Source: a virus (taxonomy: Duplodnaviria; Heunggongvirae; Uroviricota; Caudoviricetes). From it: a stretch of 64,000 bases of DNA. Positions 38,228 to 62,815 of the stretch are shown here, piece after piece (within the stretch, counting starts at the first letter, position 1; each line of letters begins with the position of its first letter). The DNA is taken from IMG/VR virus record IMGVR_UViG_3300012346_000561, positions 78,358-142,357 of that record, one strand, 5' to 3'. The translations under genes were made by a program, and so were the position numbers. The notes beneath the pieces were generated by a model. It saw nothing but the letters and a program-made list of their open reading frames with translations. It was not told the DNA's origin and did no database searches.

Positions 38228-39382
38228 TTAATTTTTACATACTACCAAGTCATTCTGATACTCCTCAAGTGAGTTGATAGTTATTTTGAATATGTCTAGT
38301 TCAAATTCCCCTACCTCTCCACTCTGCTTTATTATTTCTGGCAACTGCTGTAAGATGCTGTATGACTGCTGTGTAAACTGCTTTGCATTAAACTCTACAA
38401 CAATATCATTCTCTCCTTTAGGATAATTGTACTCTAACGTATGCACTCGCTTTGACAAATCGTAGGAGGTCTTCTTCTGCTCAGTTTCGTAGTATGCTGC
38501 TTGCAGTACTCCCATTTCATCTTGAATGTAAATTCTATCACACCAAGGTTCGAGTGCAGAGAGTAGTTCAAGGTTACAGGCTTGTATCACAAATGCTATG
38601 TTATACTTTGGAATAATTATAGGGTACTGGTACTCATCGTTCTTAATCCAGCTTCCCCATTTACGTAAATAGTTTCTGGCTGCTTTCTGTGATACTTCTT
38701 TGTAGTAGTCGTCATCCTTACCTACTTGTTCATTCCATCTATGACCTCTACATGTTAAGTGGTACACAAAGGCATCTCTAGATTGTATCAATTCATATCC
38801 TGCCATTATCCATCTCTGAAAGATATCTGAGTCTTCGTATGGGAATGGAGCGAATAGTGGGTCATGTCCTCCTATTGCTTGGAAGTCTTCTTTATAGAGT
38901 ATCCAAGGTGCAAACATTCCTCTTGTAGTTTCTCCTTCAACTGCTTGTAAGTCTCTAACAAACTCTTCGAAGGAAGCTACATCTAAAGTATCGAAGTCCA
39001 TTCCAAAATCTCTAATGATCTTTTCTTTTCCTTCTGGATGAAGAGGTGGTTCAATTCTAGTTGCACATACAACTGTCTGTGGCTTTAGATGCTTAACTAA
39101 ATTTTTAATATAGTTAGGACCCAGTATCATATCTGCATGAAGAATTCCTACTATATCATTTGTAGCTAATTCAATTCCTTTATCATATAGAATTGTATGT
39201 CCTACTCTTTCCTCACTTCTAAATTTAATACAATCCTGTTGTTGTATCCACTCCCAGGTACCATCTGTCGATCCATCGTCAAGTAGTACAACCTCTGCAA
39301 GTGGTTCATGCTTCTGTATTGAAGCGTACACATTCTTTAAATGTTGTAAGTTATTATAACTTGGAATTACTATTGAAATCAT
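38228..39382 (-). CDS. family 2 glycosyltransferase (GT-A)
   Basis: ISIVIPSYNN...VVLLDDGSTDGT N-terminal GT2 signature. Confidence 0.6.
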   Translation of the reverse strand: MISIVIPSYNNLQHLKNVYASIQKHEPLAEVVLLDDGSTDGTWEWIQQQDCIKFRSEERVGHTILYDKGIELATNDIVGILHADMILGPNYIKNLVKHLKPQTVVCATRIEPPLHPEGKEKIIRDFGMDFDTLDVASFEEFVRDLQAVEGETTRGMFAPWILYKEDFQAIGGHDPLFAPFPYEDSDIFQRWIMAGYELIQSRDAFVYHLTCRGHRWNEQVGKDDDYYKEVSQKAARNYLRKWGSWIKNDEYQYPIIIPKYNIAFVIQACNLELLSALEPWCDRIYIQDEMGVLQAAYYETEQKKTSYDLSKRVHTLEYNYPKGENDIVVEFNAKQFTQQSYSILQQLPEIIKQSGEVGEFELDIFKITINSLEEYQNDLVVCKN

Positions 39383-40106
39383 ATTGTTCTGCTTTTTGTC
39401 GTTGTTCTACATATCTACCCCACAATCCTCTTTCCTGGAAGTATCCTATCATCTCCTGCTCTGCTAGAACATTGTACTTTGATATTATAGGGTCTTGTGA
39501 ATTATCTTTTACTGTTCCATTTCCAAAATGTATTACAGGTACCCAATCACATACTCCTATTTTCCATCCATTGTCCTCACAAACAATACCTGTCATGATA
39601 TCCTGTACCCATCCAAACTTAGAACCAAATCCTCCTACTTTCTCAACAAACTTTCTCTTAAGTAATGCGCATTGGTAATCTACCCATGGCACATATCGGA
39701 GACTAGTACTTCCCCAGTTATGGATTGCCTTCCAATGACATTGATTACGTTCAGGCTGTATCACACATCCCGATACTAATACTAAGTCCTCTTCCTTGAA
39801 TAGTTGTTCACGTAGTGCTTTTACAAAGTTGTAACCATGTACTATTAAATCTGAGTTGAGTAGTAGCATGGAATCGTACTGAGTATTCTCCAGGAAGTAG
39901 TTCATGGTAATGTCCAATCCTCCTCCGTAGTATGTATTCTCATCAACCCTCAGGGAAGTGTACTTAGATGTCTTCCCTTCATCAGATCCATTATCGATGA
40001 CCACTAAATCATAGTCATCTCTTTCGTAGGGCTTTAACATTTCGTATAAAGTATCTGTGTACTGTACGCTGTTGTAGTGTAATATTGCAACTAAACTTTT
40101 ACTCAT
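39354..40106 (-). CDS. family 2 glycosyltransferase
   Basis: VAILHYNS...LVVIDNGSDEG GT2 signature. Confidence 0.55.
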   Translation of the reverse strand: MSKSLVAILHYNSVQYTDTLYEMLKPYERDDYDLVVIDNGSDEGKTSKYTSLRVDENTYYGGGLDITMNYFLENTQYDSMLLLNSDLIVHGYNFVKALREQLFKEEDLVLVSGCVIQPERNQCHWKAIHNWGSTSLRYVPWVDYQCALLKRKFVEKVGGFGSKFGWVQDIMTGIVCEDNGWKIGVCDWVPVIHFGNGTVKDNSQDPIISKYNVLAEQEMIGYFQERGLWGRYVEQRQKAEQYDFNSNSKL

Positions 40107-41334
40107 ATATTTTTAATTCTGGTAGTAGTGTTATGAATTTTCCTTTGTATCCGTCTTGTCTCAAAGATTTAATTATATAATCAGTAAAGTTGTGTGCTAA
40201 GATTAGTACATAGTCTACTGGGTGTGATTGTAACTTGGTTCTATCTACAACCTCCACTCCTATTCCTGGTACGAATTTACCCTGCTTTAGTTGTGTGTCA
40301 TCCACTATGTAGTCGACATGATTGTGATCTATTCCTGCTGCATTCAAGTATACACATCCTTTTGCTGCTGCTCCAAAACCTGCGATACTTGCTCCTTGTT
40401 CTTTTAAAGATACAATAAATTCTTTACTTTTCAAAATGCGACTCTTTACTTCTTGACCCCATGCAACGTAATCATGTTGAGTTGATTGCTCTTCGTTGTA
40501 TACTTTTTGCAAACTGTAGTCATCCTGCTGCCAAGCCTTTCCTAATTCTCCTTTGTATGATATAAGAAGTCTCATTGTTCCTCCATGTATAGGATAGTTC
40601 ACCGCTTTTATAATATGCAGGTTATACTTGTCCAGTAGTTTAATTAGTGGTAACACCTCGTAGTAGTATATGTGCTCATGGTATACCTGATCAAACTGTC
40701 CAGTCTCCAAGCTAGTCTTCCAGTACGGAAACTCTAAACACCAGATGCCTCGACTTTCTAAACTTAAAGCAATTCCTTCTACAAAACTATCCAAGGGCTC
40801 TGTGTGTTGGAAGCAGTTGGTTGTTGTAATAAGTTTAAATTTCTGATTCAACTTCTTTGCCAAAGCACTCCCCCAGAAAGCATTTATTGAAGGTATTCCA
40901 GATTCAATAGCCTCCTTTGTAAGGTTTTCGGATGCATCAATATTAAGTACGTCTAGGTAAGGTTTCTTATCTAAAAAAGTCTTTAGCAATGTACCATCAT
41001 TTCCTCCTATATCCAATACCTTATCTCCTTCCTGCAGGTACAAGTACATATCTACAAACCAAAACATTTGTGCACAATGATCGATGTATGGTTGTGACAC
41101 TCCTGATTTGTATACATAATGTGAGTACAGTTCAGTAGGATCTATTTCCACAGTCAATGCAGACAGTCCACTTTCTTTGAACAATTGGACAGCTAACGGA
41201 TACTTGTCACAAGCTAAAGACTGTTCTTTAGTATCATTTAAGTTATTTACCAACGGCATCATTCCTAGGTCAAAGTATATCTCCCCGTCAGCCTTTCCTG
41301 TAATAGGACATTTGTTTATTGTTTTGTAACTCAT
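40099..41334 (-). CDS. SAM-dependent (sugar C-)methyltransferase with N-terminal Zn-ribbon
   Basis: N-term CPITG..; class I MTase motif I VLDIGGNDGTLL; ~410 aa architecture of TylCIII/TcaB9-like C-methyltransferases. Confidence 0.55.
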   Translation of the reverse strand: MSYKTINKCPITGKADGEIYFDLGMMPLVNNLNDTKEQSLACDKYPLAVQLFKESGLSALTVEIDPTELYSHYVYKSGVSQPYIDHCAQMFWFVDMYLYLQEGDKVLDIGGNDGTLLKTFLDKKPYLDVLNIDASENLTKEAIESGIPSINAFWGSALAKKLNQKFKLITTTNCFQHTEPLDSFVEGIALSLESRGIWCLEFPYWKTSLETGQFDQVYHEHIYYYEVLPLIKLLDKYNLHIIKAVNYPIHGGTMRLLISYKGELGKAWQQDDYSLQKVYNEEQSTQHDYVAWGQEVKSRILKSKEFIVSLKEQGASIAGFGAAAKGCVYLNAAGIDHNHVDYIVDDTQLKQGKFVPGIGVEVVDRTKLQSHPVDYVLILAHNFTDYIIKSLRQDGYKGKFITLLPELKIYE

Positions 41335-42047
41335 AGTAGTTGTTTTATATCTATGTTTGTTGGATTAACTGCAAAGTTAATATACTTCTCAGGTAAGTGT
41401 CTACATTCCGCTTTCTCTAAGTCGTAGGGATATACTTTGGTGTAAAACATATATGGGACTGATGCTACACTTTCTAATTGATCACAGTTGCCATATTGGA
41501 ATCCATACTGTCTGAAGGTGGTCTCCCATACATTTGCTTTGATCATATTTTCAATGTCTTGCTTGCTGAATAGCCAGTTTCCACTGTGTAGGTTCCATGG
41601 CTCCCATACTTGATGCTCTTCCCACTTCTGCTTAACTGTTCCATAACCTCCTCTATGTACAGCATGTACGGGATTCATATCAAAGTACCTCTTAGTGTCA
41701 TCTCTTTTATCATATTCGTATCTAACAAATCCTGGTATGAATGTGTCAGGTAATGATTGGTACAGGTCTACTACATTGTTGAAAACTTCTTGTGTGATTA
41801 GAATATCATCCTCATTGTATAAAATATAGTCCCAATCTTGTGAAAGATTATCCACTACCCACTGTTTAGGTTTATACACTAACTCCCTTTCTACTGATTT
41901 AGGAAAGTGTATGGTTTGGCTTACTGGTAGTGTGTGTTCCTCTGTTGTGAATAGTACCACTGAGGAGAACTTGTTAAGCTCTTCAACAACCTGTGGTACG
42001 TATTCATTATTAGGATTGTAACTTGGAACTAGTGATACTACTTTCAT
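41331..42047 (-). CDS. hypothetical protein (possible GT-A-like)
   Basis: 238 aa; YNEDDILI acidic motif. Confidence 0.35.
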   Translation of the reverse strand: MKVVSLVPSYNPNNEYVPQVVEELNKFSSVVLFTTEEHTLPVSQTIHFPKSVERELVYKPKQWVVDNLSQDWDYILYNEDDILITQEVFNNVVDLYQSLPDTFIPGFVRYEYDKRDDTKRYFDMNPVHAVHRGGYGTVKQKWEEHQVWEPWNLHSGNWLFSKQDIENMIKANVWETTFRQYGFQYGNCDQLESVASVPYMFYTKVYPYDLEKAECRHLPEKYINFAVNPTNIDIKQLL

Positions 42048-42679
42048 TTTATGTATTTAATTCCTATTCCCATTTCATTAGTAAAAGCAATCTCCTCATC
42101 TAGTTGTATTCCTGAATCTGTTATTGCTCTATACACTCCACAGTTACCAGAATCTTCAATAGGTCTGATGTCGTGAAAAAGTAGTAAGTCTTTAGCCAAA
42201 GGAGCAAACTTATCAATGTCATTTTTAATTTCATGATACTTATGTCCTGCATCTATGAACACTATGTCATACATGGATCCATGCTCAAGTACTGCTGGTA
42301 GTGCCTCTGGGCTTAGTGTGTTTATGTCGATCAGCTCTGCTTCAAATCCTTGATCTTTTATGTACGTGATTACGTTAGGTAAGAACTTATTAGCTTCGTG
42401 GTCATGATTGATCAGAGTAATTGTTACGTACTTACCTTTTATGTTATGTAGTTTACAAAACTCAGCAAATGCTAATCCCCACAATCCTTTCCAAGCTCCT
42501 ACTTCTAGGAAGGTAAGTTCTTTTACTTTATTTTTTTTATAATATTCACTAATTGAATCCCATGCTGTAAAGAATTCGATACCTCTTTGAGAACCTTCAA
42601 AAGAGATACTCTCATCTCTGCTTGCATGTACTGGTACGTGTACTTTTGAGTACGCTTCTACGATTTTGCTATCTAACAT
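42044..42679 (-). CDS. class I SAM-dependent methyltransferase
   Basis: LEVGAWKGLWG glycine-rich motif I, acidic motif II FIDAGH. Confidence 0.5.
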   Translation of the reverse strand: MLDSKIVEAYSKVHVPVHASRDESISFEGSQRGIEFFTAWDSISEYYKKNKVKELTFLEVGAWKGLWGLAFAEFCKLHNIKGKYVTITLINHDHEANKFLPNVITYIKDQGFEAELIDINTLSPEALPAVLEHGSMYDIVFIDAGHKYHEIKNDIDKFAPLAKDLLLFHDIRPIEDSGNCGVYRAITDSGIQLDEEIAFTNEMGIGIKYIK

Positions 42680-42708
42680 ATTATTGGTTTGTTTAAAATT
42701 GATTTAGT

Positions 42709-43326
42709 TTATATACCGCATAGTGTGCGATACTTGTCTAACAGTGTCTCGAGTATCGTATCGTCTATACCATTACGAGAAAGCCCCACTGCATTTTGCT
42801 TAAGGTACTTTGCAGGAGAGCCTACATACACTCCTCCTGGTTCAATATTAGAAGTCTTTGTTACCACACTTCCCATACCTACCATACTGTAAGCTCCTAT
42901 CTTACTAAACTGATGGCATATGCTTCCTAGTCCGAAGTTTACTCCCTTCATTATATAAGAGTGTCCTCCTATTAATACGTTGCACGATAATGTAACTCTA
43001 TCCTCTACAACACTGTCATGTCCTACGTGACTTGCTCTTAACATTGTAATGTCACTACCAAGTACGGTGGTATGTTCTGTTCCTGCATTTACTGTCACGA
43101 ACTCTCTAAAGGTGTTGTTATTTTGTATCACTGTCTTGCCTACTTCTGATAAGAAGTAGTCTCGGTGTTCTGCTGGAGTTCCTATGGAGCAGTATGCTTC
43201 AAATCTATTATTGTTTCCTATCTTAGTATCTCCTGTTATGTAACAAAAAGGTCCTATATAGTTGCCTTCTCCTAATTCTACTGTGCTCTCTACAAGAGCT
43301 GTTGGATGAATGTAATTTGCCTTCAT
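42709..43326 (-). CDS. hexapeptide-repeat (left-handed beta-helix) acyl/acetyltransferase, LpxA/PglD-like
   Basis: tandem [LIV]-G-x-x-x-x hexapeptides (IHPTALV..VELGEGNYIGPFCYITGDTKIGNNN). Confidence 0.6.
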   Translation of the reverse strand: MKANYIHPTALVESTVELGEGNYIGPFCYITGDTKIGNNNRFEAYCSIGTPAEHRDYFLSEVGKTVIQNNNTFREFVTVNAGTEHTTVLGSDITMLRASHVGHDSVVEDRVTLSCNVLIGGHSYIMKGVNFGLGSICHQFSKIGAYSMVGMGSVVTKTSNIEPGGVYVGSPAKYLKQNAVGLSRNGIDDTILETLLDKYRTLCGI

Positions 43327-43329
43327 AAG

Positions 43330-44133
43330 TTAAAATCTTAGTGGAGCATTCCAATTGGACTGCATTGTAATTCCTAAGTAATTTTGTGATAATATTTGTT
43401 CTGTTATTCCTAAATCTTTAGCATGGGAATACTGCCAAGGATAGTGAAATGTTTTAAATAGAGGTCCGCAAGGGTAGTACTGCTTTCCCGAAAACAGCAT
43501 ATACTCTCCGTACCAATTGTTCTCCGAAGCACTAAAGTTTAGCAAGTCTAAGAACGTTAGTTCGTTTGGTACACAGTAATTGTCATACAGCTCTTGAAAT
43601 ACTGAGGAGATGTATAATATTGCAGAGCCTGAATAGTCGTAGTGTCTTCCTTCTCTTCCAAATACTTGCATGATCTTATCCCTCTCTCCTGCAAACCATT
43701 CTCTCAATCTACCATCTCCAGTTATAACCTCTGAGTACTCTAGTAAGTCTTTGCATTCGTGTATTGTAAAGTACGGAACTCCTTCTTTGGTAATGAAGTC
43801 TGTTGCATGAAAGTCTCTAATGAAGTACATGTCTGAATCCATTGTGAAGTAGTTGCTGGCTATTCCTGTCTTGTAAAACTCCATCTTGAATAGCTGCTGG
43901 GTGAAGTGAGACTGTGTGTTTGTATCTGTTGTAAGATCTTCATCAAACACTATCTGGTAGGTACCTTCGCCTAGCACCTCTTGGAAGATACTCAAATCTT
44001 TTTTAGGTATACAGAGGTAGAACGGTATACCATCCTTATTATACTGAGTGATGCTTTCTAGAAGTACTTTTACTCGATGTACATCTTTGTAATATGACTT
44101 GCAAAATAGTATTAGATCGTGTGTGTATTCCAT
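43330..44133 (-). CDS. hypothetical protein in glycosylation island
   Basis: 267 aa. Confidence 0.4.
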   Translation of the reverse strand: MEYTHDLILFCKSYYKDVHRVKVLLESITQYNKDGIPFYLCIPKKDLSIFQEVLGEGTYQIVFDEDLTTDTNTQSHFTQQLFKMEFYKTGIASNYFTMDSDMYFIRDFHATDFITKEGVPYFTIHECKDLLEYSEVITGDGRLREWFAGERDKIMQVFGREGRHYDYSGSAILYISSVFQELYDNYCVPNELTFLDLLNFSASENNWYGEYMLFSGKQYYPCGPLFKTFHYPWQYSHAKDLGITEQILSQNYLGITMQSNWNAPLRF

Positions 44134-44136
44134 ATT

Positions 44137-44988
44137 CTAAAATTGTTTTATCATTCCGTATTGATCAAAGATAGGCATTTTTCCCCACTTCTCCAACCAC
44201 TTGTTCATATTTTTTTGCTCTGCTTGTCTCTGTCTTTGTGATGACTGTCCATTGTTTTCTTCCAACCTATGTGAGCCTCTTGCTCCGAAATGCCAAACAA
44301 TAGAACTAAAAGGTAGTACAAATCTCACTCCGTGTTGTAACATTCTAAGAAACAAATCCATATCATCCCAAGAAGTTGGTGCAAATCTAGGATCGTTACC
44401 TCCCACTTCATCCCATACTTCTTTCTTGACTAATCCCGATACTCCTTCTCCTTTTGGAATTTCAAAGTATTCGTTAAGCTCTTTAAATTCTTGTACAAAT
44501 TGTTCAAAGCTTTTTGGATGGAATGTATCGTAATACGCTCCAAAGGACTCAGGATCTACCAATAGTGTTCCATGTCTTTGTGGTGAGTTAAACATATTTG
44601 GTTCAATTCTAAAAGAGTTGACCCACAACTTATCATTGGGATATTTTTGATGAATTCTTAATAAATCCAAATCCCAATCCTCAGTAACATAGAAGTCTGA
44701 GTGTAGAAAGTTAATGTATTGTGTTTGTACTTTTTCAGCACAGAAGTTCATTCCACCTCCTATACCTTTTGGTGAATTGCTATGCACATCAATATAGTGT
44801 GTAAGGTTGTACCTCTCAGCATTTTCCACCAACCATTCATTTGTACCATCCGTACAATTCTCAGCATGTATAATAAAAGGAGCATCCTTGTAATAGGAAT
44901 TACTTCTTACCGACTGTACTGCCAATTTAAGGTAAGGCAGATTATTGTATGTGGATATACAATGTGTTAGCGGACTAGAGTGTATCAT
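44137..44988 (-). CDS. family 2 glycosyltransferase
   Basis: CISTYNNLPYL...HAENCTDGT GT2-like N-terminus. Confidence 0.5.
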   Translation of the reverse strand: MIHSSPLTHCISTYNNLPYLKLAVQSVRSNSYYKDAPFIIHAENCTDGTNEWLVENAERYNLTHYIDVHSNSPKGIGGGMNFCAEKVQTQYINFLHSDFYVTEDWDLDLLRIHQKYPNDKLWVNSFRIEPNMFNSPQRHGTLLVDPESFGAYYDTFHPKSFEQFVQEFKELNEYFEIPKGEGVSGLVKKEVWDEVGGNDPRFAPTSWDDMDLFLRMLQHGVRFVLPFSSIVWHFGARGSHRLEENNGQSSQRQRQAEQKNMNKWLEKWGKMPIFDQYGMIKQF

Positions 44989-45592
44989 AGAAGTTATTCT
45001 GTCTTTCTTGTCTGTCGATTGTCTTTGGATGGTATAAGGCCCATTCCTCTTCTACTGGAAGCATGCCATGGATCTTGAATCCTTCTAGTACTTCATGTAC
45101 TTTGTTAACCCATTTGATGTGAGGAACATTCTTGTATATTCTCATTTGCCAATCAGCCCAATTCACCCATCCTTTTTCATTTACATTCCATCCCCACTTC
45201 TGAATATGTTCTTGAGTTAAACCCTCTACAGTATTTACTCTAGGGACTCTAATCATATCAACATCGTTAGTCTCTAACATTGCAGGTAAGTTTTCAATTA
45301 AATTGATATGAGGAATCTCATCAGCATCTATTTGAAAGATATAATCTCCTGAGCATATTTTAAAGAATTTATTCTTCCAGTCGGCAAAGTGTCCTTGGAA
45401 TTTATCCTTTAATACAAATACATTTACTATTTCATCTACGGTAGCTACGTAATCGTAGACTTCTACACTACCGTTAGTGTCGTATAGGATTACTATCTCA
45501 TCTTCTGTACGTTTGTTAGAAAGGAGGAAGTTGACTAGTCTTTTCACTTCCTCCAATTCGTTACAAACTGTTATTGCATAACTTATTTTCAT
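44975..45592 (-). CDS. putative GT-A fold glycosyltransferase
   Basis: ISYAITVCNE...IVILYDTNGS. Confidence 0.4.
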   Translation of the reverse strand: MKISYAITVCNELEEVKRLVNFLLSNKRTEDEIVILYDTNGSVEVYDYVATVDEIVNVFVLKDKFQGHFADWKNKFFKICSGDYIFQIDADEIPHINLIENLPAMLETNDVDMIRVPRVNTVEGLTQEHIQKWGWNVNEKGWVNWADWQMRIYKNVPHIKWVNKVHEVLEGFKIHGMLPVEEEWALYHPKTIDRQERQNNFYDTL

Positions 45593-45610
45593 ACTAGTAA
45601 TATAGGACTT

Positions 45611-46072
45611 TTACTGCTCGTCTGCAACTTCTAGTTCAAAAAATCCTATCACTTCTAAAGCATCCATGAAGTCTCTTTGTTCAAACATTTGTGCACTTCT
45701 CATGTCCATCTTATGTGTTTGTCCTTCAGGGAATGTACCCTTCTCTTCTTCGGAAATTTCTACAGCTTTTACTGCTGCCCACTTCCAATTGTCTGCATTT
45801 GTACCGTCAACAAATACCATTCCTTTACCTGGAAGAGTTATTGTTGATGGGAACCATACGTGACCTTCACTGTCAGTATACGTAATGTCTTTGTATAGTT
45901 CTGGAGCAGATTCAATTGCTTGTAGTACTGGACTGCTTCCTTCTTTCATTGTTGTTGAAGAACTTTTTCCACATCCAAAGCAAAGCCATGTTGTGATGTC
46001 TTCATTTAGTTTTTGTTCGTAGCATGCATTGCTACCTCCACAAGGACAATCTTTTAATTGATCTTTTTCCAT
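45611..46072 (-). CDS. Cys-rich (zinc-ribbon) hypothetical protein
   Basis: CPCGG...CFGCGK. Confidence 0.4.
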   Translation of the reverse strand: MEKDQLKDCPCGGSNACYEQKLNEDITTWLCFGCGKSSSTTMKEGSSPVLQAIESAPELYKDITYTDSEGHVWFPSTITLPGKGMVFVDGTNADNWKWAAVKAVEISEEEKGTFPEGQTHKMDMRSAQMFEQRDFMDALEVIGFFELEVADEQ

Positions 46073-47367
46073 TATTCAATCTTTTTTAATTTTGGTAATT
46101 CTACTTTCTTTAGTTGTGGCAGCTTCAACTGTACTTGCTTAGGAAACTCAGGAATGTACTGTGACATAAGTGAATCTAGCGTTTCTACCATCTTTTCGTA
46201 AGAGAACTGTGTTCTGCTTCGGTGACCTTGTCTCTTGGCTAAGTCCTTGTACTTGTTGTAGTTTGCATAAACATCTTTCAATGCTTGACCTACTTGAATT
46301 GGATCTGCAGAGAACCATTGACTTTCTGTTAGTAACATATTCTTTATTGCAGCTGAAGGGTGTACATTTGTTAGATTTCCTCCTATGTACTTTACAAATT
46401 CATTATCCAAGAAATCAACATGACCTGACCAGAACGATGCTATGATTGGTTTGTTTACTAAACTGAACTCTAGTAATGGTCTTCCAAATCCTTCTCCTTT
46501 TGTTAGAGAGATCATTGCTTTTACTTTACCGTGATTGTATAATTCGTTTACCTCAGCATCAGTCATGTCACCATGAAGTAGGTAAATGTTTGGTAAGTCT
46601 CCTTTTACAGTGTTTCTTATTGCATCGATCTTATCCAACACAGCTTCTCTGTCCATGATAGATGTTCCTGATCCTGCTTGCACTTTTAGTATAAGTGCTG
46701 GTCTTTTTCCTTTAGGTTTATTTTTAAATGTTTCTAAGAAAGATTTAATAGTATATCCTATATTCTTTCTATCCTCTCCTAGATCTCCTGGCAGCCAGTG
46801 TCCTACTACTAAATAACAAAACATCTCATCTATTTCATCCAGTTGTAATTTTGTAGGCCAAGCTAATGGACCATACTTATTTACATCCACTCCTTCAAAT
46901 AAAACCTCTACTTTTGTCTGTAATTCAACTACACCTGTAACTTGTCCTGTTCTACTATCTTGCATGTTGAATTTAGAATCTTCAAACACTTTCTTAGCAT
47001 GTTGTGAAGATACTAACACCAAGTCCATATTGTTACATCCTTGAATCCAAGAAGGATCACAGATTGTAGTTTCAATTCCTGCCGTTACTCCAATGTTGTA
47101 CTTACCTACTTTTTGAAACTCATTAGGTACTGTAATCTGAATCCAGATGTCTGGTTGTTGAGTTATTTGTGTTGTAATTTTAGATGCCAATACTTCGTTA
47201 TTGTGATCTGCTAAGTATCCAAATCTAGTCCCTCCCCATCTTTGTGAAAGTATTTGGACATCATACTTATCTGTATCAATAATTGATTGCACAAAGTCTC
47301 TTGATCTTGCTCCGTATCCTGAGTAAGTGTCTATTGGACAGCTTACTACTACTGTTGGTTTGCTCAT
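46072..47367 (-). CDS. GT-B fold glycosyltransferase (GT4-like)
   Basis: EGFGRPLLEFSLVNKPIIAS = E-x7-E GT4 motif. Confidence 0.55.
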   Translation of the reverse strand: MSKPTVVVSCPIDTYSGYGARSRDFVQSIIDTDKYDVQILSQRWGGTRFGYLADHNNEVLASKITTQITQQPDIWIQITVPNEFQKVGKYNIGVTAGIETTICDPSWIQGCNNMDLVLVSSQHAKKVFEDSKFNMQDSRTGQVTGVVELQTKVEVLFEGVDVNKYGPLAWPTKLQLDEIDEMFCYLVVGHWLPGDLGEDRKNIGYTIKSFLETFKNKPKGKRPALILKVQAGSGTSIMDREAVLDKIDAIRNTVKGDLPNIYLLHGDMTDAEVNELYNHGKVKAMISLTKGEGFGRPLLEFSLVNKPIIASFWSGHVDFLDNEFVKYIGGNLTNVHPSAAIKNMLLTESQWFSADPIQVGQALKDVYANYNKYKDLAKRQGHRSRTQFSYEKMVETLDSLMSQYIPEFPKQVQLKLPQLKKVELPKLKKIE

Positions 47368-47369
47368 AA

Positions 47370-48818
47370 CTAATATGATAATTTATGTGTAATATATTTT
47401 CTAGGTCTGTCTGTAATTTTGTGTACTTCAAATCTTGCTCTAGGTTTGAATTTCTCAAATGTTAAGTCTATTGAACTAATAACATTTTCACACATCATTC
47501 TTGCTGACATTCCTGACTCATTAGACGTTACCCACTCTCTTGCTTTCATTCCTTTAGCATCTCTCTCTTCTTTACTCATGTAGTATGCTTTAGATAAAGC
47601 GTACGCTGCATCCTCTGGTCTACATCTGTCGTCAAAGATGTAAGGAGTTGGAACTGATCCTACTAATGAAATGTTTGATGGATAGATTGGAATAGCCCAC
47701 TCTCCATGGTTTGAGTATGTCCTTCTGTGGTTTGATGGGAAGTCTGAGGTGAAGTCGATCCACTTATCCTCTGTATCGTATGTAAATCTCATCTGATCTT
47801 GCATACCTCCTGTTACATTTGCAATGATCATTCTACCTGCCATCATAGCTTCTGTTAGAGATAATCCCCATCCTTCGTTCGATGATAGTAACATGTTAAC
47901 ATCTGAGATGTTGTAAAGAAGATTCATTTGAGGAGTATCCAATCTTTCTTGTGAGAAAAATACATTTACATACTCAGGGTCACATAGGGCTTCTCTTACA
48001 GCATATAGATCTGTACCATTCTCATCCACTGCTTGAGTATGCATCACAAGAGCACATCTCTTTGCCTTCTCAGGACCAATAACATCACAGAAGTATCTGT
48101 ACGCTAATACAACGTCTCCTGGAGACTTTCTTCTAATGTTTCTTGAATTGAATAGTACTACGAAGTCGATCTCTTTGTCTTTGAACATTGCTTTTTTGAA
48201 ATCTTGTAGTAGTGCAAAGTTCTCATGTCCCTCTCTAATTGGGAAGAAGTGTTCTTCATTTATTCCATGAGGAACATATGTAAGTACTTTGTCCTTTGCA
48301 GCTTCTCCTAATACAATCTCATTAATGTTCTTAGTCTGTTTTGAAATAGACATTAACAAGTCACAAGATTCGTAGTATGCTTTATTGTAAAGTGGAGTAG
48401 GATAGTCATCCCAAATGTTTAGGTATAGTAGAGGAATCTTATTTCTAACCTCTCTTTCAATTTCAAACAACCAAGTCCAATATCTTGGATCTGTAAAGAT
48501 AAAGATTGCATCTGGCTTTTCTTGAGCGATTAGTCCTCTGATCTGCATGGCATCTCCATAACCGTTGTTAGGTAAAACTCTTACCCAAGCATCTTCAATA
48601 CCTGCAAATTTGTTTACCTCTTGCGAGATATCAAATCCTTTTCCTGCTTCAGGGTGATTGATTGCTGCTCCTACATTGAGCCAATTGAAGTGGTGTGCTG
48701 TTCCTGTGACAATCTCTCTTGCCATAGTAGCGATACCGGAATGCATCCTAATATCATCGCATAACAGTAAGATCTTCTTACGATCTTCCTTTTTTACATA
48801 ACGAAATTTTTCTTTCAT
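47370..48818 (-). CDS. GT-B fold glycosyltransferase (GT4-like)
   Basis: NEGWGLSLTEAMMAGRMIIAN = EX7E motif. Confidence 0.6.
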   Translation of the reverse strand: MKEKFRYVKKEDRKKILLLCDDIRMHSGIATMAREIVTGTAHHFNWLNVGAAINHPEAGKGFDISQEVNKFAGIEDAWVRVLPNNGYGDAMQIRGLIAQEKPDAIFIFTDPRYWTWLFEIEREVRNKIPLLYLNIWDDYPTPLYNKAYYESCDLLMSISKQTKNINEIVLGEAAKDKVLTYVPHGINEEHFFPIREGHENFALLQDFKKAMFKDKEIDFVVLFNSRNIRRKSPGDVVLAYRYFCDVIGPEKAKRCALVMHTQAVDENGTDLYAVREALCDPEYVNVFFSQERLDTPQMNLLYNISDVNMLLSSNEGWGLSLTEAMMAGRMIIANVTGGMQDQMRFTYDTEDKWIDFTSDFPSNHRRTYSNHGEWAIPIYPSNISLVGSVPTPYIFDDRCRPEDAAYALSKAYYMSKEERDAKGMKAREWVTSNESGMSARMMCENVISSIDLTFEKFKPRARFEVHKITDRPRKYITHKLSY

Positions 48819-48822
48819 GTAA

Positions 48823-49005
48823 CTATTTTAATTTAATGTTTGTTTGTGTATGCAGCTTTTGCTTGAAGCTCTCTTCTGTAAGATACAAATAAATTGCTCT
48901 GTCTACAAGTTTTTGTAGAGAAAATTTATGTCGTACGCATTGTTCTTTAAATTCCTGTAGAAGATCCTCTTCTACTTTAACCGATGTTAGTTTTTTTGTA
49001 TTCAT
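48823..49005 (-). CDS. small hypothetical protein
   Basis: 60 aa. Confidence 0.3.
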   Translation of the reverse strand: MNTKKLTSVKVEEDLLQEFKEQCVRHKFSLQKLVDRAIYLYLTEESFKQKLHTQTNIKLK

Positions 49006-53528: not shown

Positions 53529-55471
<1,943 letters not shown>

Positions 55472-55545
55472 AAAACTAATTTACTTTTTTGATTATTATT
55501 TAATATAGTAAGAAAAAATTAAAGATGCAACTCTAGGGCAGAGTA

Positions 55546-55947
55546 TTATTTTATCTTAATTGTTTTAGGTTTAGCTTCTTCCGATATTGGTATAAAGATT
55601 TCTAATAATCCATTCTCCAATTTAGCTTCTACTTTACGTAGATTAAATTTAGATGAAATTTTGTAACCTAGATTGAAAGATCTCTTTGCTAATCCTCTGT
55701 GAATTGTTCCTGGGTGAATTTCTTCTGGTTCTTTTTCGTAACTAATTTTTAAAACATCTTCTTCGATGTTTACATTTACATCTTCCTTTGTAAGACCTGT
55801 ACAAGCTACTTCGAAGAATAGTCCTGTCTCGTCATGAAAAATGTTTAAAGGGTGTGGTTGTTTTGCCTGAACAGCTGATAAGAATCCGCTGGTTGGTTGA
55901 AAGAAATTGTGGAATAGAATATCCCATTCGTTGAATTGTGTACTCAT
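55546..55947 (-). CDS. small heat-shock protein, Hsp20/alpha-crystallin family
   Basis: 133 aa; alpha-crystallin domain (…FEVACTGLTKEDVNVNIEEDVLKISYEKE…GLLEIFIP). Confidence 0.75.
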   Translation of the reverse strand: MSTQFNEWDILFHNFFQPTSGFLSAVQAKQPHPLNIFHDETGLFFEVACTGLTKEDVNVNIEEDVLKISYEKEPEEIHPGTIHRGLAKRSFNLGYKISSKFNLRKVEAKLENGLLEIFIPISEEAKPKTIKIK

Positions 55948-59415: not shown

Positions 59416-60192
59416 TTAGTGTGCTTGGTTAGTTAAGAACTTTACATTACTTTCTACAAGATTCATATTGACATTTGACATATCGAACGTCTCTAAGAAG
59501 TTATGTGGAGTTGGAGTACGTGTTGTATGGTCTACTGCAAAATCCTGTCCTAGAGATGCTGCAAATACTGGATACACTGAATCTGTACTTCTCATCATTG
59601 GATGGTCGTAATATGCAAACTCTGTTGGATCTCCTTGCCCTAAACAGTGAATAGGTTTAACCAAAAATCCTTGCTCTTTCAAGTAGTCGTAAGCCATGTG
59701 ACGTGCTTCTTTAATTCCCTGATCGTCTTTGAAGTCTTCTAGGAATGCATTTGGTACTGCTATCTTAGAAAATCCTATAACGTCAATCCAAGATTGATTT
59801 ATTGCCCAGTTGTATGCATTTAGCCATGCTTCTTTGGTTTCTCCTTGTGGACAGAAAAAGATATCAATCGTTCCCAATAATCCTTCTTCTTCCATACGAT
59901 CTCTAAACATTCTTGCATTGTAGATTGTTTCCTCTTTGTTGAATAAAACATCTGGTGCAATTACTTCGTCAGGCATTAACTCTCTACAGATCTCAATTAA
60001 GATATCCTCTGTTACTAATGCTCTTTCAGCTGCTGAGTTGTCGAGTGTTATGAATTTACCTTGCTCTTTTTGATCTAAGATAAACGCTCTGTACTCAGGA
60101 AACTGAACCCATAAGTGAGCCAATGCGAAGATACGATCTCCCAACTTCATTGGCTCTAAGTTACTTACTGGTGATATTACGTAGATGTCCAT
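59416..60192 (-). CDS. candidate DpdA-like (tRNA-guanine-transglycosylase-fold) DNA 7-deazaguanine transglycosylase - uncertain
   Basis: 258 aa; placed directly downstream of folE in a deazapurine-type module; no zinc motif recognised; assignment by context only. Confidence 0.3.
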   Translation of the reverse strand: MDIYVISPVSNLEPMKLGDRIFALAHLWVQFPEYRAFILDQKEQGKFITLDNSAAERALVTEDILIEICRELMPDEVIAPDVLFNKEETIYNARMFRDRMEEEGLLGTIDIFFCPQGETKEAWLNAYNWAINQSWIDVIGFSKIAVPNAFLEDFKDDQGIKEARHMAYDYLKEQGFLVKPIHCLGQGDPTEFAYYDHPMMRSTDSVYPVFAASLGQDFAVDHTTRTPTPHNFLETFDMSNVNMNLVESNVKFLTNQAH

Positions 60193-60193
60193 C

Positions 60194-60835
60194 TTAGTAA
60201 CGGCTTTGATCGATTAAGTTAAAGAACTCAGCTCTTGTACCAATTTCATTTGTATGGAAGTATCCTGACATTTGTGATGTCTTCATAACTGAGTCATGTT
60301 TAACTCCTCTACATTTTACACAATTGTGTTGAGATTCAATTACAACTGCTACTCCTCTATTTCCTATACAAAGTCTGTCGATGTGATCATGAATCTGTTT
60401 AGTCAAACTTTCTTGAATGTTTGGTCTACGAGAATAGAAATCTACAATACGATTCAACTTACTTAAACCAACAACCAAGTCAGTCTTCTCTTTACCTGCA
60501 ATGTATGCTACGTGAGCTACTCCTGAGAAGGTTAAGTTGTGATGTGCACACATACTCATTACTGGTATACGTGTTTGGCAGATTAATCCTGTGTATCCTT
60601 CATCATTTGGAAATGCTGTTACTTCTGGCTCTGGACTGATTGATCCTGCGATCAAGTCATTAACCCATGCTTTCGCTACACGATGTGGTGTACGATCACT
60701 ATGTGGATCTGCTTTCCAATCAAATCCTAATGCTGTTAAGAACTCACCGTAATACTTTGCAGCTTGTTCGATCATTTGTTGTTTCTCCTCAGACGTACGA
60801 GGTAAATTGCCATTGGCTTTTTTAAGTAATTCCAT
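60194..60835 (-). CDS. folE: GTP cyclohydrolase I (FolE)
   Basis: TPHRVAKAW..., catalytic C-x-H-H block (SMCAHHNLTF), ~213 aa. Confidence 0.75.
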   Translation of the reverse strand: MELLKKANGNLPRTSEEKQQMIEQAAKYYGEFLTALGFDWKADPHSDRTPHRVAKAWVNDLIAGSISPEPEVTAFPNDEGYTGLICQTRIPVMSMCAHHNLTFSGVAHVAYIAGKEKTDLVVGLSKLNRIVDFYSRRPNIQESLTKQIHDHIDRLCIGNRGVAVVIESQHNCVKCRGVKHDSVMKTSQMSGYFHTNEIGTRAEFFNLIDQSRY

Positions 60836-61667: not shown

Positions 61668-62147
61668 TTACTTTACGTCTTTAGTTCCTTGCCACTGACC
61701 ATCATACAACTCTGCTTCATTATTATCGAAGATAATAATCTGAGCCACTCTTGCTCCCTTCTCAATAGTGATTGGTTGTGTTGCAATTAATACTCCACCC
61801 ATCTCATCTACTTCAAATCCTGGATCATATACTCCTGATGTGATAATTGCTCCACATCTTAATATGCTTGATCTGTGTCTAATGAAAGCTGTTTTGTTAC
61901 TTGGAAGTTTTACTCCTTGCTCAAATGTTAAGCTGTAGCTTCCTGGTTCTAATCTGAAACGTGTCTTGCCTTCGAGTTCATAGGAAGGTACTTCGTTGTA
62001 CGAGTCCACTATAGTTTTATCACATAAAACTGATCCTCCATTGATTGTTTTAACTTCTTTAAGAGTTAAATCATAACCCACTTGAGCCTTTGCTCCTTTG
62101 TCATTTGTTGTAAGTAATTGTAGTACTTGATCTGCGTTGTTTAACAT
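61668..62147 (-). CDS. dCTP deaminase / dUTPase-superfamily enzyme
   Basis: GYDL motif (QVGYDLTL) and IRHRSSILRCG matching dCTP deaminase R-S-S-x-x-R-x-G motif. Confidence 0.6.
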   Translation of the reverse strand: MLNNADQVLQLLTTNDKGAKAQVGYDLTLKEVKTINGGSVLCDKTIVDSYNEVPSYELEGKTRFRLEPGSYSLTFEQGVKLPSNKTAFIRHRSSILRCGAIITSGVYDPGFEVDEMGGVLIATQPITIEKGARVAQIIIFDNNEAELYDGQWQGTKDVK

Positions 62148-62419: not shown

Positions 62420-62815
62420 TTACTTTTTTAAATAATCTTGAATACTTTCTGAGTCATTTCTTTCCCAAGGATATACAAGCCACTCTGTTCCTACCTCTTT
62501 TGAGTAGAAGTCAGGAGTAAATACTGCTGTTGGCTTGTAGTGAAGCGTTGCAGTATACATTCCTATAGTATTTTTTAATGTCTCTCCTGTATCACAAATG
62601 TCATCTACAACAAGAGTGTCTTTGTTTATTCTGCTTACATATGGGATGTGCAGCTTGTGAGAGATCATTACTGCTGGGATTAGCCCTCCTCTTTGGATAC
62701 CTGTTATCGATTTGATTTGCACTCCTGATGAAACTATTGTGTGACATAAATCCTCTACTAAGATGTTAATGTCATCCCAACTTAAATAAACTTTATTTCC
62801 TATTTTTAGTGCCAT
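62420..62815 (-). CDS. purine phosphoribosyltransferase, xanthine-guanine PRT (Gpt)-like
   Basis: PRPP-binding VVDDICDTGET; IQRGGLIPAVMIS and WLVYPWE match Gpt blocks. Confidence 0.65.
   Translation of the reverse strand: MALKIGNKVYLSWDDINILVEDLCHTIVSSGVQIKSITGIQRGGLIPAVMISHKLHIPYVSRINKDTLVVDDICDTGETLKNTIGMYTATLHYKPTAVFTPDFYSKEVGTEWLVYPWERNDSESIQDYLKK

Follow-up and report, generated by a model that had tools for sequence, protein, structure and literature searches.

A glycosylation island with a conserved core and a hypervariable cassette in a relative of Flavobacterium phage immuto, and its candidate acceptors

Gene content of the island

Within the window (the whole 64,000-nucleotide stretch of phage DNA analysed here), a co-directional minus-strand run fills positions 38228-48818, from the start of its first ORF at 48818 to the stop of its last at 38228. 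The initial annotation counted eleven genes; we find 12 ORFs of at least 150 aa, the additional one encoding a 153-aa Zn-ribbon protein. Junctions between ORFs range from -29 to +29 nt, with overlaps at 6 of 11, giving the run an operon-like appearance. The genes and their flanks are as follows:

48823-49005, (-): conserved 60-aa gene directly upstream of the island; possible ribbon-helix-helix regulator on weak evidence (sole family hint RHH_4, E 0.15)
47370-48818, (-): core gene 1, 482-aa GT4-type glycosyltransferase (GT-B, retaining family); EX7E motif EGWGLSLTE at residue 315; Pfam Glycos_transf_1 1.1e-7, 32 bits, over the cut-off
46072-47367, (-): core gene 2, 431-aa divergent GT4-like glycosyltransferase; EX7E motif EGFGRPLLE at residue 292; Glycos_transf_1 18.7 bits, sub-threshold
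45611-46072, (-): core gene 3, 153-aa Zn-ribbon protein (CxC...CxxC)
44975-45592, (-): core gene 4, a minimal GT2 (GT-A) glycosyltransferase of 205 aa, after which conservation gives way to the cassette; Pfam Glycos_transf_2 7e-12
~39212-44980, (-): hypervariable cassette (ORFs 2-8), in whose place close relatives carry unrelated genes; its seven genes follow
44137-44988, (-): 283-aa GT2 glycosyltransferase; Glycos_transf_2 4e-14; motif ENCTDGT
43330-44133, (-): 267-aa DUF6492 protein, candidate sugar or sugar-phosphate transferase; Pfam DUF6492 4.6e-9, weak Stealth_CR2 0.004
42709-43326, (-): 205-aa left-handed beta-helix acyl/acetyltransferase, short and LpxA-like; Pfam Hexapep 5.6e-14
42044-42679, (-): 211-aa class I SAM methyltransferase, candidate sugar O-methyltransferase; Pfam Methyltransf_24 5.8e-10; LEVGAWKG at residue 58
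41331-42047, (-): 238-aa familyless protein with an invariant YNEDDI motif
40099-41334, (-): 411-aa nucleotide-sugar 3-C-methyltransferase with an N-terminal Zn-binding domain; Pfam Methyltransf_14 2.8e-29; motif VLDIGGNDG
39354-40106, (-): 250-aa borderline GT2-like protein; Glycos_transf_2 1.3e-4, 22.3 bits against a cut-off of 23.3; motif IDNGSDEG
38228-39382, (-): conserved terminal 384-aa GT2 glycosyltransferase that closes the island; Glycos_transf_2 4e-21; motif DDGSTDGT; C-terminal extension of ~170 aa
37862-38206: conserved 114-aa gene, the downstream flank, always next after the terminal GT2

Every motif quoted in the initial annotation is present in the ORF implied. Its count of about six GT-A enzymes is too high: we find three firm GT2 enzymes, one borderline GT2 and one GT-A-like transferase (DUF6492/Stealth-like), and 41331-42047 belongs to no family. 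Its two GT-B enzymes hold, core gene 2 being a paralogue of core gene 1 (E 5e-5). The remaining genes encode the NDP-sugar 3-C-methyltransferase, the Methyltransf_24 enzyme, the LpxA-like hexapeptide acyltransferase, all three within the enzyme classes originally proposed, and two proteins without a family.

Several assignments can be refined further. The 3-C-methyltransferase matches the D-mycarose 3-C-methyltransferase MtfC over its full length (4RV9, 1.8e-44), as well as TcaB9, KijD1 and Methyltransf_23, with Methyltransf_13 sub-threshold (23.7 bits against 31.3). The acyltransferase matches NCBIfam LpxA (3.7e-43; 147 bits, below the cut-off of 226), NeuD/PglB/VioB (5.7e-27), PDB 8E62 (1.3e-33) and LpxA structures (1e-26). 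The GT2 at 44137-44988 is a paralogue of the terminal GT2 (27% identical, E 7e-24), and the borderline GT2 also matches a PHROG glycosyltransferase (6e-6). The familyless protein has no Pfam match even at E 5 and no match in a PDB profile search, and just 58 homologue clusters, none annotated, among 5.8 billion proteins. Profile-profile comparison (hhalign) with the island's GT2 families was negative too.

None of the 12 island proteins contains a hydrophobic stretch or membrane segment, and the holin is the sole polytopic membrane protein across the window, in line with the original statement that no flippase, polymerase or Gtr-like genes accompany the island. The window is syntenic over 64 kb with Flavobacterium phage immuto, a virulent 160-kb myovirus, which supports the earlier view of a lytic phage. 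The island is surrounded by replication, nuclease and lysis genes, with a PD-(D/E)XK nuclease gene adjoining it, and the window also encodes FolE and a distant DpdA. Mycobacteriophage glycosyltransferases, by contrast, lie in the structural module.

Conserved ends and an exchangeable middle

Comparison with approximately 90 related loci shows conserved ends. The core genes keep a fixed order: PD-(D/E)XK nuclease, 60-aa gene (located here in almost every locus), GT4, GT4, Zn-ribbon protein and GT2. Core gene 1 is found in 77 of 81 loci at 58-85% identity, core gene 2 in 71 and core gene 4 in 51, a count limited by contig ends. The terminal GT2 is present wherever contigs extend far enough (ten loci). 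Sequence and fold comparisons both give chlorovirus NY-2A B736L (3OY2) as the best solved relative of core gene 1, ahead of BshA-type GT4 enzymes; the AlphaFold model of core gene 1 is poor (pLDDT 55). B736L is the best solved relative of both core GT4 enzymes.

The middle of the island behaves differently. Nucleotide homology to relatives stops sharply at 44981-44994 and resumes at ~39185-39211, as defined by blastn breakpoints. Among the 46 loci with at least four cassette genes there are 38 distinct cassette types, and that of the window is unique (best Jaccard 0.17). A related cassette occurs on a 157-kb phage contig, L093, and is otherwise similar save for the missing 3-C-methyltransferase; another locus (L091) carries a minimal island, in which the terminal GT2 directly follows the core. 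Individual cassette genes recur in other settings: relatives of the cassette GT2 at 44137-44988 occupy varying positions in 10 loci (for example L008 and L036), those of the borderline GT2 occur in three, and orthologues of the DUF6492 protein, absent from the first 80 loci, lie within the same cassette family in L093, L094, L095 and L096. The two homologues of the familyless protein whose context was read, in four loci, sit inside such phage islands, with a ~240-aa gene and then the terminal GT2 after them.

Cassettes of related loci encode rare-sugar pathways. In six of them, NeuB and a CMP-sugar synthetase occur together with a PF01973 protein (6/6 members match, best 8.7e-10), a member of the Maf family; the window's own cassette has neither NeuB nor a Maf-like gene. 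We saw no polytopic protein among the 347 encoded by the cassettes of 61 loci, nor any Wzx, Wzy, initiating phosphoglycosyltransferase, ABC exporter or ligase.

This two-part anatomy, conserved ends with a hypervariable middle, is clear, and was overlooked in the initial annotation. We know of no phage description of a core-plus-cassette architecture with such cassette diversity. A middle that is swapped almost freely between conserved ends resembles a bacterial O-antigen locus.

The core appears to belong to phages. Core GT4 sequences are very abundant in metagenomes, forming at least 8000 clusters at 90% identity; among 185,579 species genomes they occur on 7 MAG contigs and nowhere else; the 4 long contigs examined are immuto-like phage DNA. 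In these searches the core GT4 was found only on phage-like contigs. Together with its presence in 77 of 81 loci, this distribution indicates a core gene set of the lineage rather than a moron, agreeing with the initial view that the island is not a Gtr-type seroconversion moron, and speaks against a recently captured fragment of a host LPS operon.

Candidate acceptors of the glycan

The best-fitting reading, leading but unproven, is that the glycan is placed on virion proteins. We infer its acceptor, reaction sequence and function as follows. The two GT4 enzymes, the Zn-ribbon protein and the small GT2 would lay an invariant inner glycan on an acceptor common to these phages. The likeliest such acceptor is one or several structural proteins of the virion, glycosylated in the cytoplasm ahead of assembly or while it proceeds. 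The exchangeable cassette would supply tailored sugars and further transferases for a strain-specific outer part, which in this phage may include a 3-C-methyl branched sugar, O-methylation and acylation, and the terminal GT2 would complete the glycan. Recombination in the conserved flanks would exchange cassettes, such that related phages would carry differing "glycan serotypes". We assign a probability of about 45% to this proposal of a phage-autonomous cytoplasmic pathway building a glycan of conserved core and variable tip on an acceptor that the phage itself encodes, probably a virion protein.

Several observations favor virion glycosylation. A set of soluble proteins without export or ligation machinery matches cytoplasmic protein-glycosylation islands, such as those acting on flagellin, and the NeuB, CMP-sugar synthetase and PF01973 genes of six related cassettes likewise count for cytoplasmic protein glycosylation. 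Conserved ends around a variable middle mirror both hypervariable flagellar glycosylation regions (PMC13317340) and chlorovirus capsid glycans; the kinship of the core GT4 enzymes to B736L is a weak lead in the same direction. On the other hand, the position of the island among replication, nuclease and lysis genes, away from the structural module, counts against a virion acceptor, and the large proteins of the window showed neither an acceptor motif nor a Ser/Thr-rich segment.

A serious rival is remodelling of the host envelope. Here the soluble phage enzymes would work from the cytoplasmic side of the inner membrane, taking lipid-linked intermediates of the host (undecaprenyl-PP-sugars or lipid A-core) as substrates, and host flippases, ABC exporters and ligases would display the altered glycan. 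LPS cores and ABC-transporter-type O-polysaccharides, too, are made on the cytoplasmic side by soluble enzymes of the GT4 and GT2 families that rely on host primers and exporters, so missing membrane proteins are still compatible with a host lipid acceptor. The content of these islands (GT4, GT2, aminotransferase, dehydratase, NeuB, methyltransferase) is typical of O-antigen and capsule loci, the gene names in the immuto annotation follow WcaA, RfaG, WecE and WcaG, the PHROG matches belong to "moron/AMG, GtrB-like" classes, and hypervariability could follow host O-antigen diversity. Similar glycosyltransferase-rich clusters of large marine cyanomyoviruses have been read, putatively, as host cell-surface modification (PMC12801897), which counts against a virion acceptor.

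Against this, an initiating transferase, flippase, polymerase, exporter or ligase occurs in 0 of 61 cassettes. In ABC-type O-polysaccharide export the exporter may recognise a specific terminal residue, and such a host exporter is unlikely to take phage-specific termini. The core is confined to phage-like contigs and conserved among phages whose recorded hosts belong to different phyla, cassette genes move within the phage gene pool (both examined homologues of the familyless protein lie in phage islands), and cassette base composition is near the phage's own (GC 0.372; window mean 0.351, sd 0.014). Finally, a virulent phage has little time for surface glycan replacement. We consider envelope remodelling unlikely on balance; if true, the altered surface of the infected cell would block superinfection, keep progeny from being lost on debris or alter grazing.

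Less probable still is a target other than virion protein, host envelope or DNA, such as a non-structural phage or host protein (for example, a defence or translation factor), RNA, a small molecule or a free or secreted oligosaccharide. All of the enzymes are soluble, the island is positioned among early/middle-type genes, and the Zn-ribbon protein of the core could be an adaptor or acceptor. However, this protein is missing from the island of Microcystis phage Mel-JY01, a multi-sugar hypervariable glycan on such targets is without precedent in phages, and a surface-exposed product explains hypervariability most easily.

A sugar-based DNA hypermodification, raised in the initial annotation, is very improbable and, for a sibling phage, already largely refuted. 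Transferases would here build an oligosaccharide on a modified base (a hydroxymethyl-pyrimidine or 7-deazaguanine derivative) to evade restriction, as in phage clusters whose LPS- or teichoic-acid-like transferases put mono- to trisaccharides on 5hmC (bioRxiv 10.1101/2023.12.21.572611); the adjoining nuclease, nearby DNA-metabolism genes, FolE and DpdA would fit. Yet immuto_2-6A, which has the window's core at ~80% identity, carries canonical dA, dC and dT in its virion DNA by LC-UV-MS/MS, with fdPreQ1 (formyl-preQ1) fully replacing dG as the one extra nucleoside and no other nucleoside peaks (PMC10516641), which argues against DNA glycosylation. Chemically, fdPreQ1 has no hydroxyl for glycosylation; no hmC- or hmU-generating enzyme (cytosine methyltransferase, TET-like dioxygenase, dCMP/dUMP hydroxymethylase) turned up in the scanned parts of the window (36.1-50.7 kb and 55.5-63.7 kb) or among immuto product names; and seven or eight transferases plus rare-sugar pathways far exceed any known DNA glycan.

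Comparison with known systems

Among the nearest known systems is the island of immuto, which matches that of the window in genomic position and in both flanks (PD-(D/E)XK nuclease and 60-aa gene upstream, 114-aa gene downstream). Its four core genes are 56-81% identical to the window's and its terminal GT2 54%, whereas its middle is unrelated: two DegT/WecE aminotransferases, an SDR epimerase/dehydratase, a PglB-like acetyltransferase, a GT4-like "mannosyltransferase" and a methyltransferase, in place of the 3-C-methyltransferase, LpxA-like acyltransferase, DUF6492 protein and extra GT2 enzymes seen here. The immuto record has automatic product names only, and we found no paper discussing its island. 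Mel-JY01, a PolB-type phage with a cyanobacterial host according to one GenBank record, shares the nuclease, both GT4 enzymes (~42% identity; 42% for core gene 2 and its adjacent-gene counterpart), the GT2 (37%) and the terminal GT2. This common architecture favors an acceptor carried along by the phage over a host-specific lipid-linked glycan.

O-antigen and capsule loci and the "cell wall synthesis and modification" clusters of cyanomyoviruses P-SSM2, S-SCSM1 and S-SCSM2R (PMC12801897) use the same enzyme families (GT2, GT4, GT10, GT11, SDR epimerases, Kdo/NulO synthases) and display extreme between-strain variation within conserved flanks. Unlike O-antigen loci, the phage islands lack an initiating transferase, Wzx/Wzy, ABC exporter and ligase, and no close homologue of the core GT4 was found in these three cyanophages (tblastn, E 1e-5). 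Phage DNA glycosylation clusters (T4 alpha/beta-GT; the 5hmC-glycan BGCs of Pyle et al.) similarly recruit lytic-phage transferases from LPS-like families but require a 5hmC/5hmU-generating step, none being seen in the window regions scanned.

Flagellar glycosylation regions are likewise hypervariable and cytoplasmic, with sugar-pathway, methyltransferase and transferase genes clustered between conserved neighbours, no flippase, and Mafs that put nonulosonic acids directly onto flagellin (PMC13317340). Related phage cassettes pair nonulosonic-acid pathways with Maf-family (PF01973) transferases. The phage has no flagellin, however, and the GT4-GT4-Zn protein-GT2 core is without counterpart there.

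Chloroviruses and mimiviruses carry virus-encoded capsid or fibril glycosylation clusters, and chlorovirus capsid glycans have a conserved core and a variable tip. Virion glycosylation has reportedly also been described in actinobacteriophages, by Freeman and colleagues (2023, Cell Host Microbe). Our island differs from these three systems in that its glycan is a predicted one, its hosts are Gram-negative Bacteroidota and it lies away from the structural genes. It shares with them virus-encoded soluble glycosyltransferases, methyltransferases and rare-sugar pathways without host export machinery, a gene content that differs by clade, and a core GT4 whose best solved relative is chloroviral.

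Gene content of the island

The interval 38228-48818 is exactly one minus-strand run of 12 ORFs (listed below). Gene junctions range from -29 to +29 nt, with overlaps at 6 of 11, and a scan that does not model Bacteroidota promoters found no enrichment of promoter- or terminator-like sites within the island. Together, these features fit a single transcription unit.

Genes of the island and the adjoining small gene, with the evidence for each assignment
48823-49005, minus strand: conserved 60-aa gene, separating nuclease gene from island at almost every locus
47370-48818, minus strand: GT4-type GT-B glycosyltransferase, 482 aa (Glycos_transf_1 at 32 bits, above cut-off)
46072-47367, minus strand: divergent paralogue of the 482-aa GT4, 431 aa (Pfam sub-threshold, EX7E present)
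45611-46072, minus strand: Zn-ribbon protein, 153 aa (no family)
44975-45592, minus strand: GT2, 205 aa (profile search)
44137-44988, minus strand: GT2, 283 aa (profile search)
43330-44133, minus strand: DUF6492 protein, 267 aa (weak Stealth CR2 match)
42709-43326, minus strand: hexapeptide acyltransferase, 205 aa (closest to LpxA; PDB 8E62 at 1.3e-33)
42044-42679, minus strand: Methyltransf_24 protein, 211 aa (profile search)
41331-42047, minus strand: protein without family, 238 aa
40099-41334, minus strand: NDP-sugar 3-C-methyltransferase, 411 aa (full-length match, 4RV9 at 1.8e-44)
39354-40106, minus strand: GT2-like protein, 250 aa (just below cut-off)
38228-39382, minus strand: terminal GT2 with a ~170-aa extension, 384 aa (profile search)

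Each of the five sequence motifs quoted in the initial annotation, as well as the EX7E motifs, was found in the ORF implied, and profile searches of the ORFs matched glycosyltransferase, methyltransferase, hexapeptide or DUF6492 families, in two cases below cut-off, leaving only the Zn-ribbon protein and 41331-42047 without one. The kinds of enzyme listed there thus stand; the gene number does not (12 rather than 11), and the approximately six GT-A enzymes become three firm, one borderline and one GT-A-like. The 60-aa gene may encode a small regulator, its only family hint being a very weak match to ribbon-helix-helix (E 0.15).

An AlphaFold model of the 482-aa GT4 was poor (pLDDT 55, from a 34-sequence alignment at 79-86% identity); a fold search with it confirmed a GT4-type GT-B fold and returned nothing on the acceptor. 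The Zn-ribbon protein folds well in prediction, and the fold search found no structural neighbour that would point to a function. A GT-A fold for 41331-42047, suspected from its YNEDDI motif, was not supported: relaxed Pfam searches, a PDB profile search and hhalign comparison with the island's two GT2 families were all negative.

The window, about 40% of the genome with capsid and tail-tube genes lying outside it, is collinear with Flavobacterium phage vB_FspM_immuto (immuto), a 160-kb virulent myovirus of the genus Immutovirus from the Baltic Sea. The two share genes for baseplate, fibre, GroEL/GroES, PolA, holin, endolysin, a PD-(D/E)XK nuclease and DUF3310. The nuclease and the lysis genes flank the island on one side, and a block of small genes flanks it on the other. 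At the same locus immuto carries an island of about equal size (gp169-gp181), of which only the two ends resemble those of the window's. A chaperone set also stands together in the window at 53529-55947 (minus strand). Its GroEL (544 aa) and GroES (101 aa) are named after the homologous genes annotated in immuto; its third member, an Hsp20/alpha-crystallin protein at 55546-55947, was scanned directly.

Conserved core and variable cassettes

The 482-aa GT4, used as a query, recovered more than 599 stretches in IMG/VR, and it forms at least 8000 clusters at 90% identity in a metagenome protein collection. Across 81 loci the gene order is fixed: PD-(D/E)XK nuclease, 60-aa gene, GT4, GT4, Zn-ribbon protein, GT2. 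These last four core genes are present in 77, 71, 61 and 51 of the loci, respectively, the falling counts being due to contig ends. On the 3′ side of the small GT2 follow 5-10 genes that are usually unrelated to those of the window and then, if the contig extends that far, the counterpart of the 384-aa GT2 with a conserved 114-aa gene behind it. DNA homology to relatives ends at 44981-44994 of the window and returns at ~39185-39211, in the 5′ part of the terminal GT2. These breakpoints divide the island into three parts: a conserved core (44975-48818), a variable cassette (~39212-44980) and the terminal GT2, again conserved.

The cassettes are highly diverse, with 355 proteins falling into 146 clusters (93 of them singletons) and 38 cassette types among the 46 loci with at least four cassette genes; the window's type is unique in this sample. 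In the related cassette of L093, a phage contig of 157 kb, the C-methyltransferase is missing and an SDR enzyme has been added, indicating that cassettes also change gene by gene, and the 283-aa GT2 occurs at differing positions in different cassettes. A form with no cassette exists as well: on the MAG contig CAYPEJ010000017.1 (L091:10001-16000), which belongs to a related phage, the GT4, GT4, Zn-ribbon and GT2 genes adjoin the terminal GT2, and the 114-aa gene comes next. At 0.372, the GC content of the window's cassette is among the highest values for segments of 5.8 kb (mean 0.351, sd 0.014) but is not foreign-looking.

From a Pfam census of cluster representatives, supplemented by targeted scans, cassettes are predicted to be complete rare-sugar pathways plus transferases. 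SDR epimerase/dehydratases occur in 32 loci, DegT aminotransferases in 26, GT4-like enzymes in 13, NeuB in 7, PF01973 proteins in 7 and CMP-sugar synthetases in 6. Further families include GT11 and GT10 fucosyltransferases, UDP-sugar dehydrogenases, hexapeptide transferases, nucleotidyltransferases, a TPP-dependent acetolactate-synthase-like enzyme and many types of methyltransferase (Methyltransf_24, Methyltransf_23, FkbM, TylF), and some cassette proteins are bifunctional (GT2 with GT10; GT2 with DUF5672). In six loci (L033, L035, L036, L042, L047 and L075), a ~100-aa gene, NeuB, a CMP-sugar synthetase and a PF01973 protein form a module that suggests phage-made sialic-acid-like sugars of the pseudaminic or legionaminic type. 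PF01973 is the Maf family; a PDB sequence search with this cluster gave no match, and the assignment is by Pfam. In the window's own island, a profile scan found neither Maf nor a CMP-nonulosonic-acid pathway. Three other loci encode a TPP-dependent acetolactate-synthase-like enzyme (L024:17282-19027), a split transketolase (L095:3974-5094) and an HMGL-like-cytidylyltransferase fusion (L044:16003-17700), which hint at branched-chain or higher-carbon sugars.

The core appears to be confined to phages. A scan with the core GT4 alignment of 185,579 species of bacteria and archaea, each represented by a single genome, relied on conserved peptide patterns that find fairly close relatives only; it gave 7 matches, all on MAG contigs, of which the four long ones show immuto-type phage synteny. 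The cassette gene 41331-42047 has only 58 homologue clusters among 5.8 billion proteins, and both that were examined sit in islands of this kind. The possibility that the region in relatives is a host-derived LPS operon fragment, raised in the initial annotation as a counter-case, was checked and is not what is seen: for the core we reject it, given a GT4 found only on MAG contigs, the long ones phage-like, and for the cassette such an origin is unlikely.

The same module is carried by the 190-kb Microcystis phage Mel-JY01, which has a family B polymerase and is not mentioned in the literature searched. Its identities to the window are 38% for the PD-(D/E)XK nuclease, 39-53% for the first GT4, 41% for the second and 37% for the small GT2, and a terminal GT2 again closes the module, after a short cassette that includes a methyltransferase; the Zn-ribbon protein is absent. 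The first GT4, homologous to the 482-aa enzyme, appears in the annotation as separate CDS of 190 and 302 aa (L085:11995-13486), a split that is either genuine or due to a frameshift or an error in sequencing. Weaker relatives extend to a 484-kb uncultured phage and Rhodothermus phage RM378.

Candidate acceptors of the proposed glycan

None of the 12 island proteins has a hydrophobic segment, and the sole polytopic membrane protein of the whole window is the holin. Among 347 cassette proteins from 61 loci none is polytopic, and 7 have one weak hydrophobic stretch. No initiating transferase, flippase, polymerase, exporter or ligase was found among the most frequent families of the Pfam census or the representatives scanned singly. 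These results bear out the earlier statement that flippase, polymerase and Gtr-like genes are lacking. They also agree with its view that the island is not a seroconversion moron, as there is no GtrA flippase, membrane-anchored GtrB or polytopic GtrC and the nearest cultured relative is virulent; PHROG 'GtrB-like' matches extend over the GT2 catalytic domain only.

The island product may be a glycan on a virion protein, a reading to which we assign a probability of roughly 0.45. In mechanism, the islands that glycosylate proteins in the cytoplasm, such as those for flagellin (below), come nearest to it. Enzymes encoded by the virus itself also glycosylate the particles of chloroviruses, mimiviruses and some actinobacteriophages. 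For both core GT4 enzymes the best solved relative, by sequence and by fold, is a chlorovirus glycosyltransferase, with weak scores and one of the models at low confidence. No Ser/Thr-rich acceptor-like segment was found in the large proteins of the window; the capsid and tail-tube genes lie outside it.

Several observations bear on whether these enzymes instead remodel the surface glycan of the host, which we consider less probable but a serious rival. Soluble GT4 and GT2 enzymes can use lipid-linked intermediates together with host export, and modification of the host surface is the usual reading of cyanophage glycosyltransferase clusters (PMC12801897). Four observations argue against it: export and ligation functions were not seen among the cassette families checked, phage-like contigs are the only ones on which the core turned up, Mel-JY01 carries the module although its recorded host belongs to another phylum, and the phage is virulent. 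Some other soluble acceptor, neither virion protein, envelope nor DNA, is less probable again.

Modification of the phage genome, with the transferases glycosylating a DNA base, is the least probable reading. By LC-UV-MS/MS, digested virion DNA of immuto_2-6A, a sibling of this phage, contained dA, dC, dT and one unknown peak, identified as 7-(formylamino)methyl-7-deazaguanine (fdPreQ1), which fully replaces dG (Cui et al., PMC10516641). Because the immuto core is ~80% identical to that of the window and this sibling's DNA carries no sugar, bulk sugar modification of DNA is not the role of the conserved core; modification at a low level and at specific sites is nevertheless conceivable. No dCMP/dUMP hydroxymethylase, nor a C5-methyltransferase with a TET-like dioxygenase, was found in the ORFs scanned (36.1-50.7 and 55.5-63.7 kb). 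Beyond the window this absence rests on immuto, whose whole-genome product names include no hmC- or hmU-generating enzyme, the nearest entry being a thymidylate synthase of 423 aa (gp224, L082:26884-28155), far above the usual ThyA length and perhaps a fusion or a hydroxymethylase-type enzyme, although dT and dC are normal in the published DNA analysis. The sugar-based hypermodification initially proposed therefore finds no support in the sibling's DNA or in the regions scanned. GT4 and GT2 enzymes glycosylate queuosine in eukaryotic tRNA; a glycosylated queuosine-like base was ruled out here, as immuto's G replacement is fdPreQ1 with no sugar.

The deazaguanine genes of the window, which adjoin the PolA region, are themselves divergent. 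FolE (60194-60835, minus strand) is 52% identical to immuto's, a 258-aa protein (59416-60192, minus strand) is only 26% identical to immuto DpdA (E 3e-11), and BLAST gave no match in the window for what immuto encodes at the corresponding place (QueF-like, thymidylate kinase and DpdN formyltransferase). The 7-deazaguanine modification of this phage may thus differ from fdPreQ1. Nearby on the minus strand are also genes for a dCTP deaminase/dUTPase-like protein (61668-62147), a phosphoribosyltransferase-like protein (62420-62815) and a non-specific DNA/RNA endonuclease (62818-63402).

Proposed assembly and comparison with known systems

In the model we favor, that of a virion glycan, the core GT4 enzymes and the small GT2 would build a conserved inner oligosaccharide on the acceptor, perhaps assisted by the Zn-ribbon protein. 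The 3-C-methyltransferase would turn a host-supplied NDP-4-keto-6-deoxyhexose into a branched 3-C-methyl sugar, with methyl and acyl groups added by the Methyltransf_24 enzyme and the LpxA-like acyltransferase. The 283-aa GT2, the DUF6492 protein, the 250-aa GT2-like protein and the terminal 384-aa GT2 would then extend and finish the glycan. The window's cassette contains no dehydratase and no 4-ketoreductase, so that 4-ketoreduction is a gap in this model; the L093 cassette has an SDR enzyme.

More tentatively, an abundant and widespread ~160-kb aquatic phage lineage (including immuto-like Bacteroidota phages; a Microcystis phage also carries a form of the island) might coat its virions with an O-antigen-like glycan. 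Its inner part would be set by the phage-specific core (GT4, GT4, a new-fold Zn-ribbon protein and GT2), and its outer part by a freely exchanged cassette for rare sugars (branched, methylated, amino, fucosyl and nonulosonic). If so, these phages would have 'glycan serotypes' under diversifying selection, and the glycan could shield the particle, or be a bait or ligand that engages the surface machinery with which polysaccharide-feeding hosts bind glycans. To our knowledge, virion glycosylation in tailed phages has been demonstrated only in actinobacteriophages, and such a system in phages that infect Gram-negative bacteria would be a first. With the glycan on the virion, cassette swapping would add a new dimension to phage diversity, with effects on host range and on the stability and stickiness of the particles, and rare-sugar enzymes could be drawn from the cassettes.

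The presence of such islands is not itself new, as glycosyltransferase-rich islands of large aquatic myoviruses are annotated in cyanophages and in the immuto GenBank record, and similar clusters in marine phages generally go under the label 'host surface modification'. The literature searched contains no account of a conserved core seen on phage-like contigs only, of a sharp-edged hypervariable cassette with dozens of types or of its cassette-less form, nor of lineage-wide missing export machinery or its combination with direct evidence against a DNA target. The lineage is environmentally very abundant. With a cultured phage and host (immuto on Flavobacterium sp. LMO8), a phage-specific core, DNA largely excluded and a library of dozens of cassette types, the role of LPS-like clusters in lytic aquatic phages is directly testable.

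Among known systems, the DNA-glycan clusters of Pyle et al. differ in having an hmC/hmU-generating enzyme, of which none was seen in the regions scanned here, and Gtr-type seroconversion modules in their typical temperate carrier and membrane proteins, neither of which is seen here. Wzx/Wzy- or ABC-dependent O-antigen and capsule loci similarly combine nucleotide-sugar pathway genes with several glycosyltransferases, hypervariable between strains inside conserved flanks; among the families checked in the phage islands, however, there is no initiating phosphoglycosyltransferase, no flippase or ABC exporter, no polymerase or chain terminator and no ligase. In flagellar glycosylation regions, hypervariable blocks with the enzyme classes of the phage cassettes lie between conserved genes, and Maf transferases attach nonulosonic acids to flagellin in the cytoplasm (PMC13317340). 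The window's cassette differs from these in its lack of Maf and a CMP-nonulosonic-acid pathway, whereas six related cassettes join NeuB and a CMP-sugar synthetase to a PF01973 protein. In actinobacteriophages the transferases of virion glycosylation adjoin structural genes, unlike the island between nuclease/lysis and small genes. At the level of genes, the island nonetheless resembles actinobacteriophage, chlorovirus and mimivirus virion glycosylation in joining soluble virus-encoded glycosyltransferases to tailoring enzymes with no export machinery.
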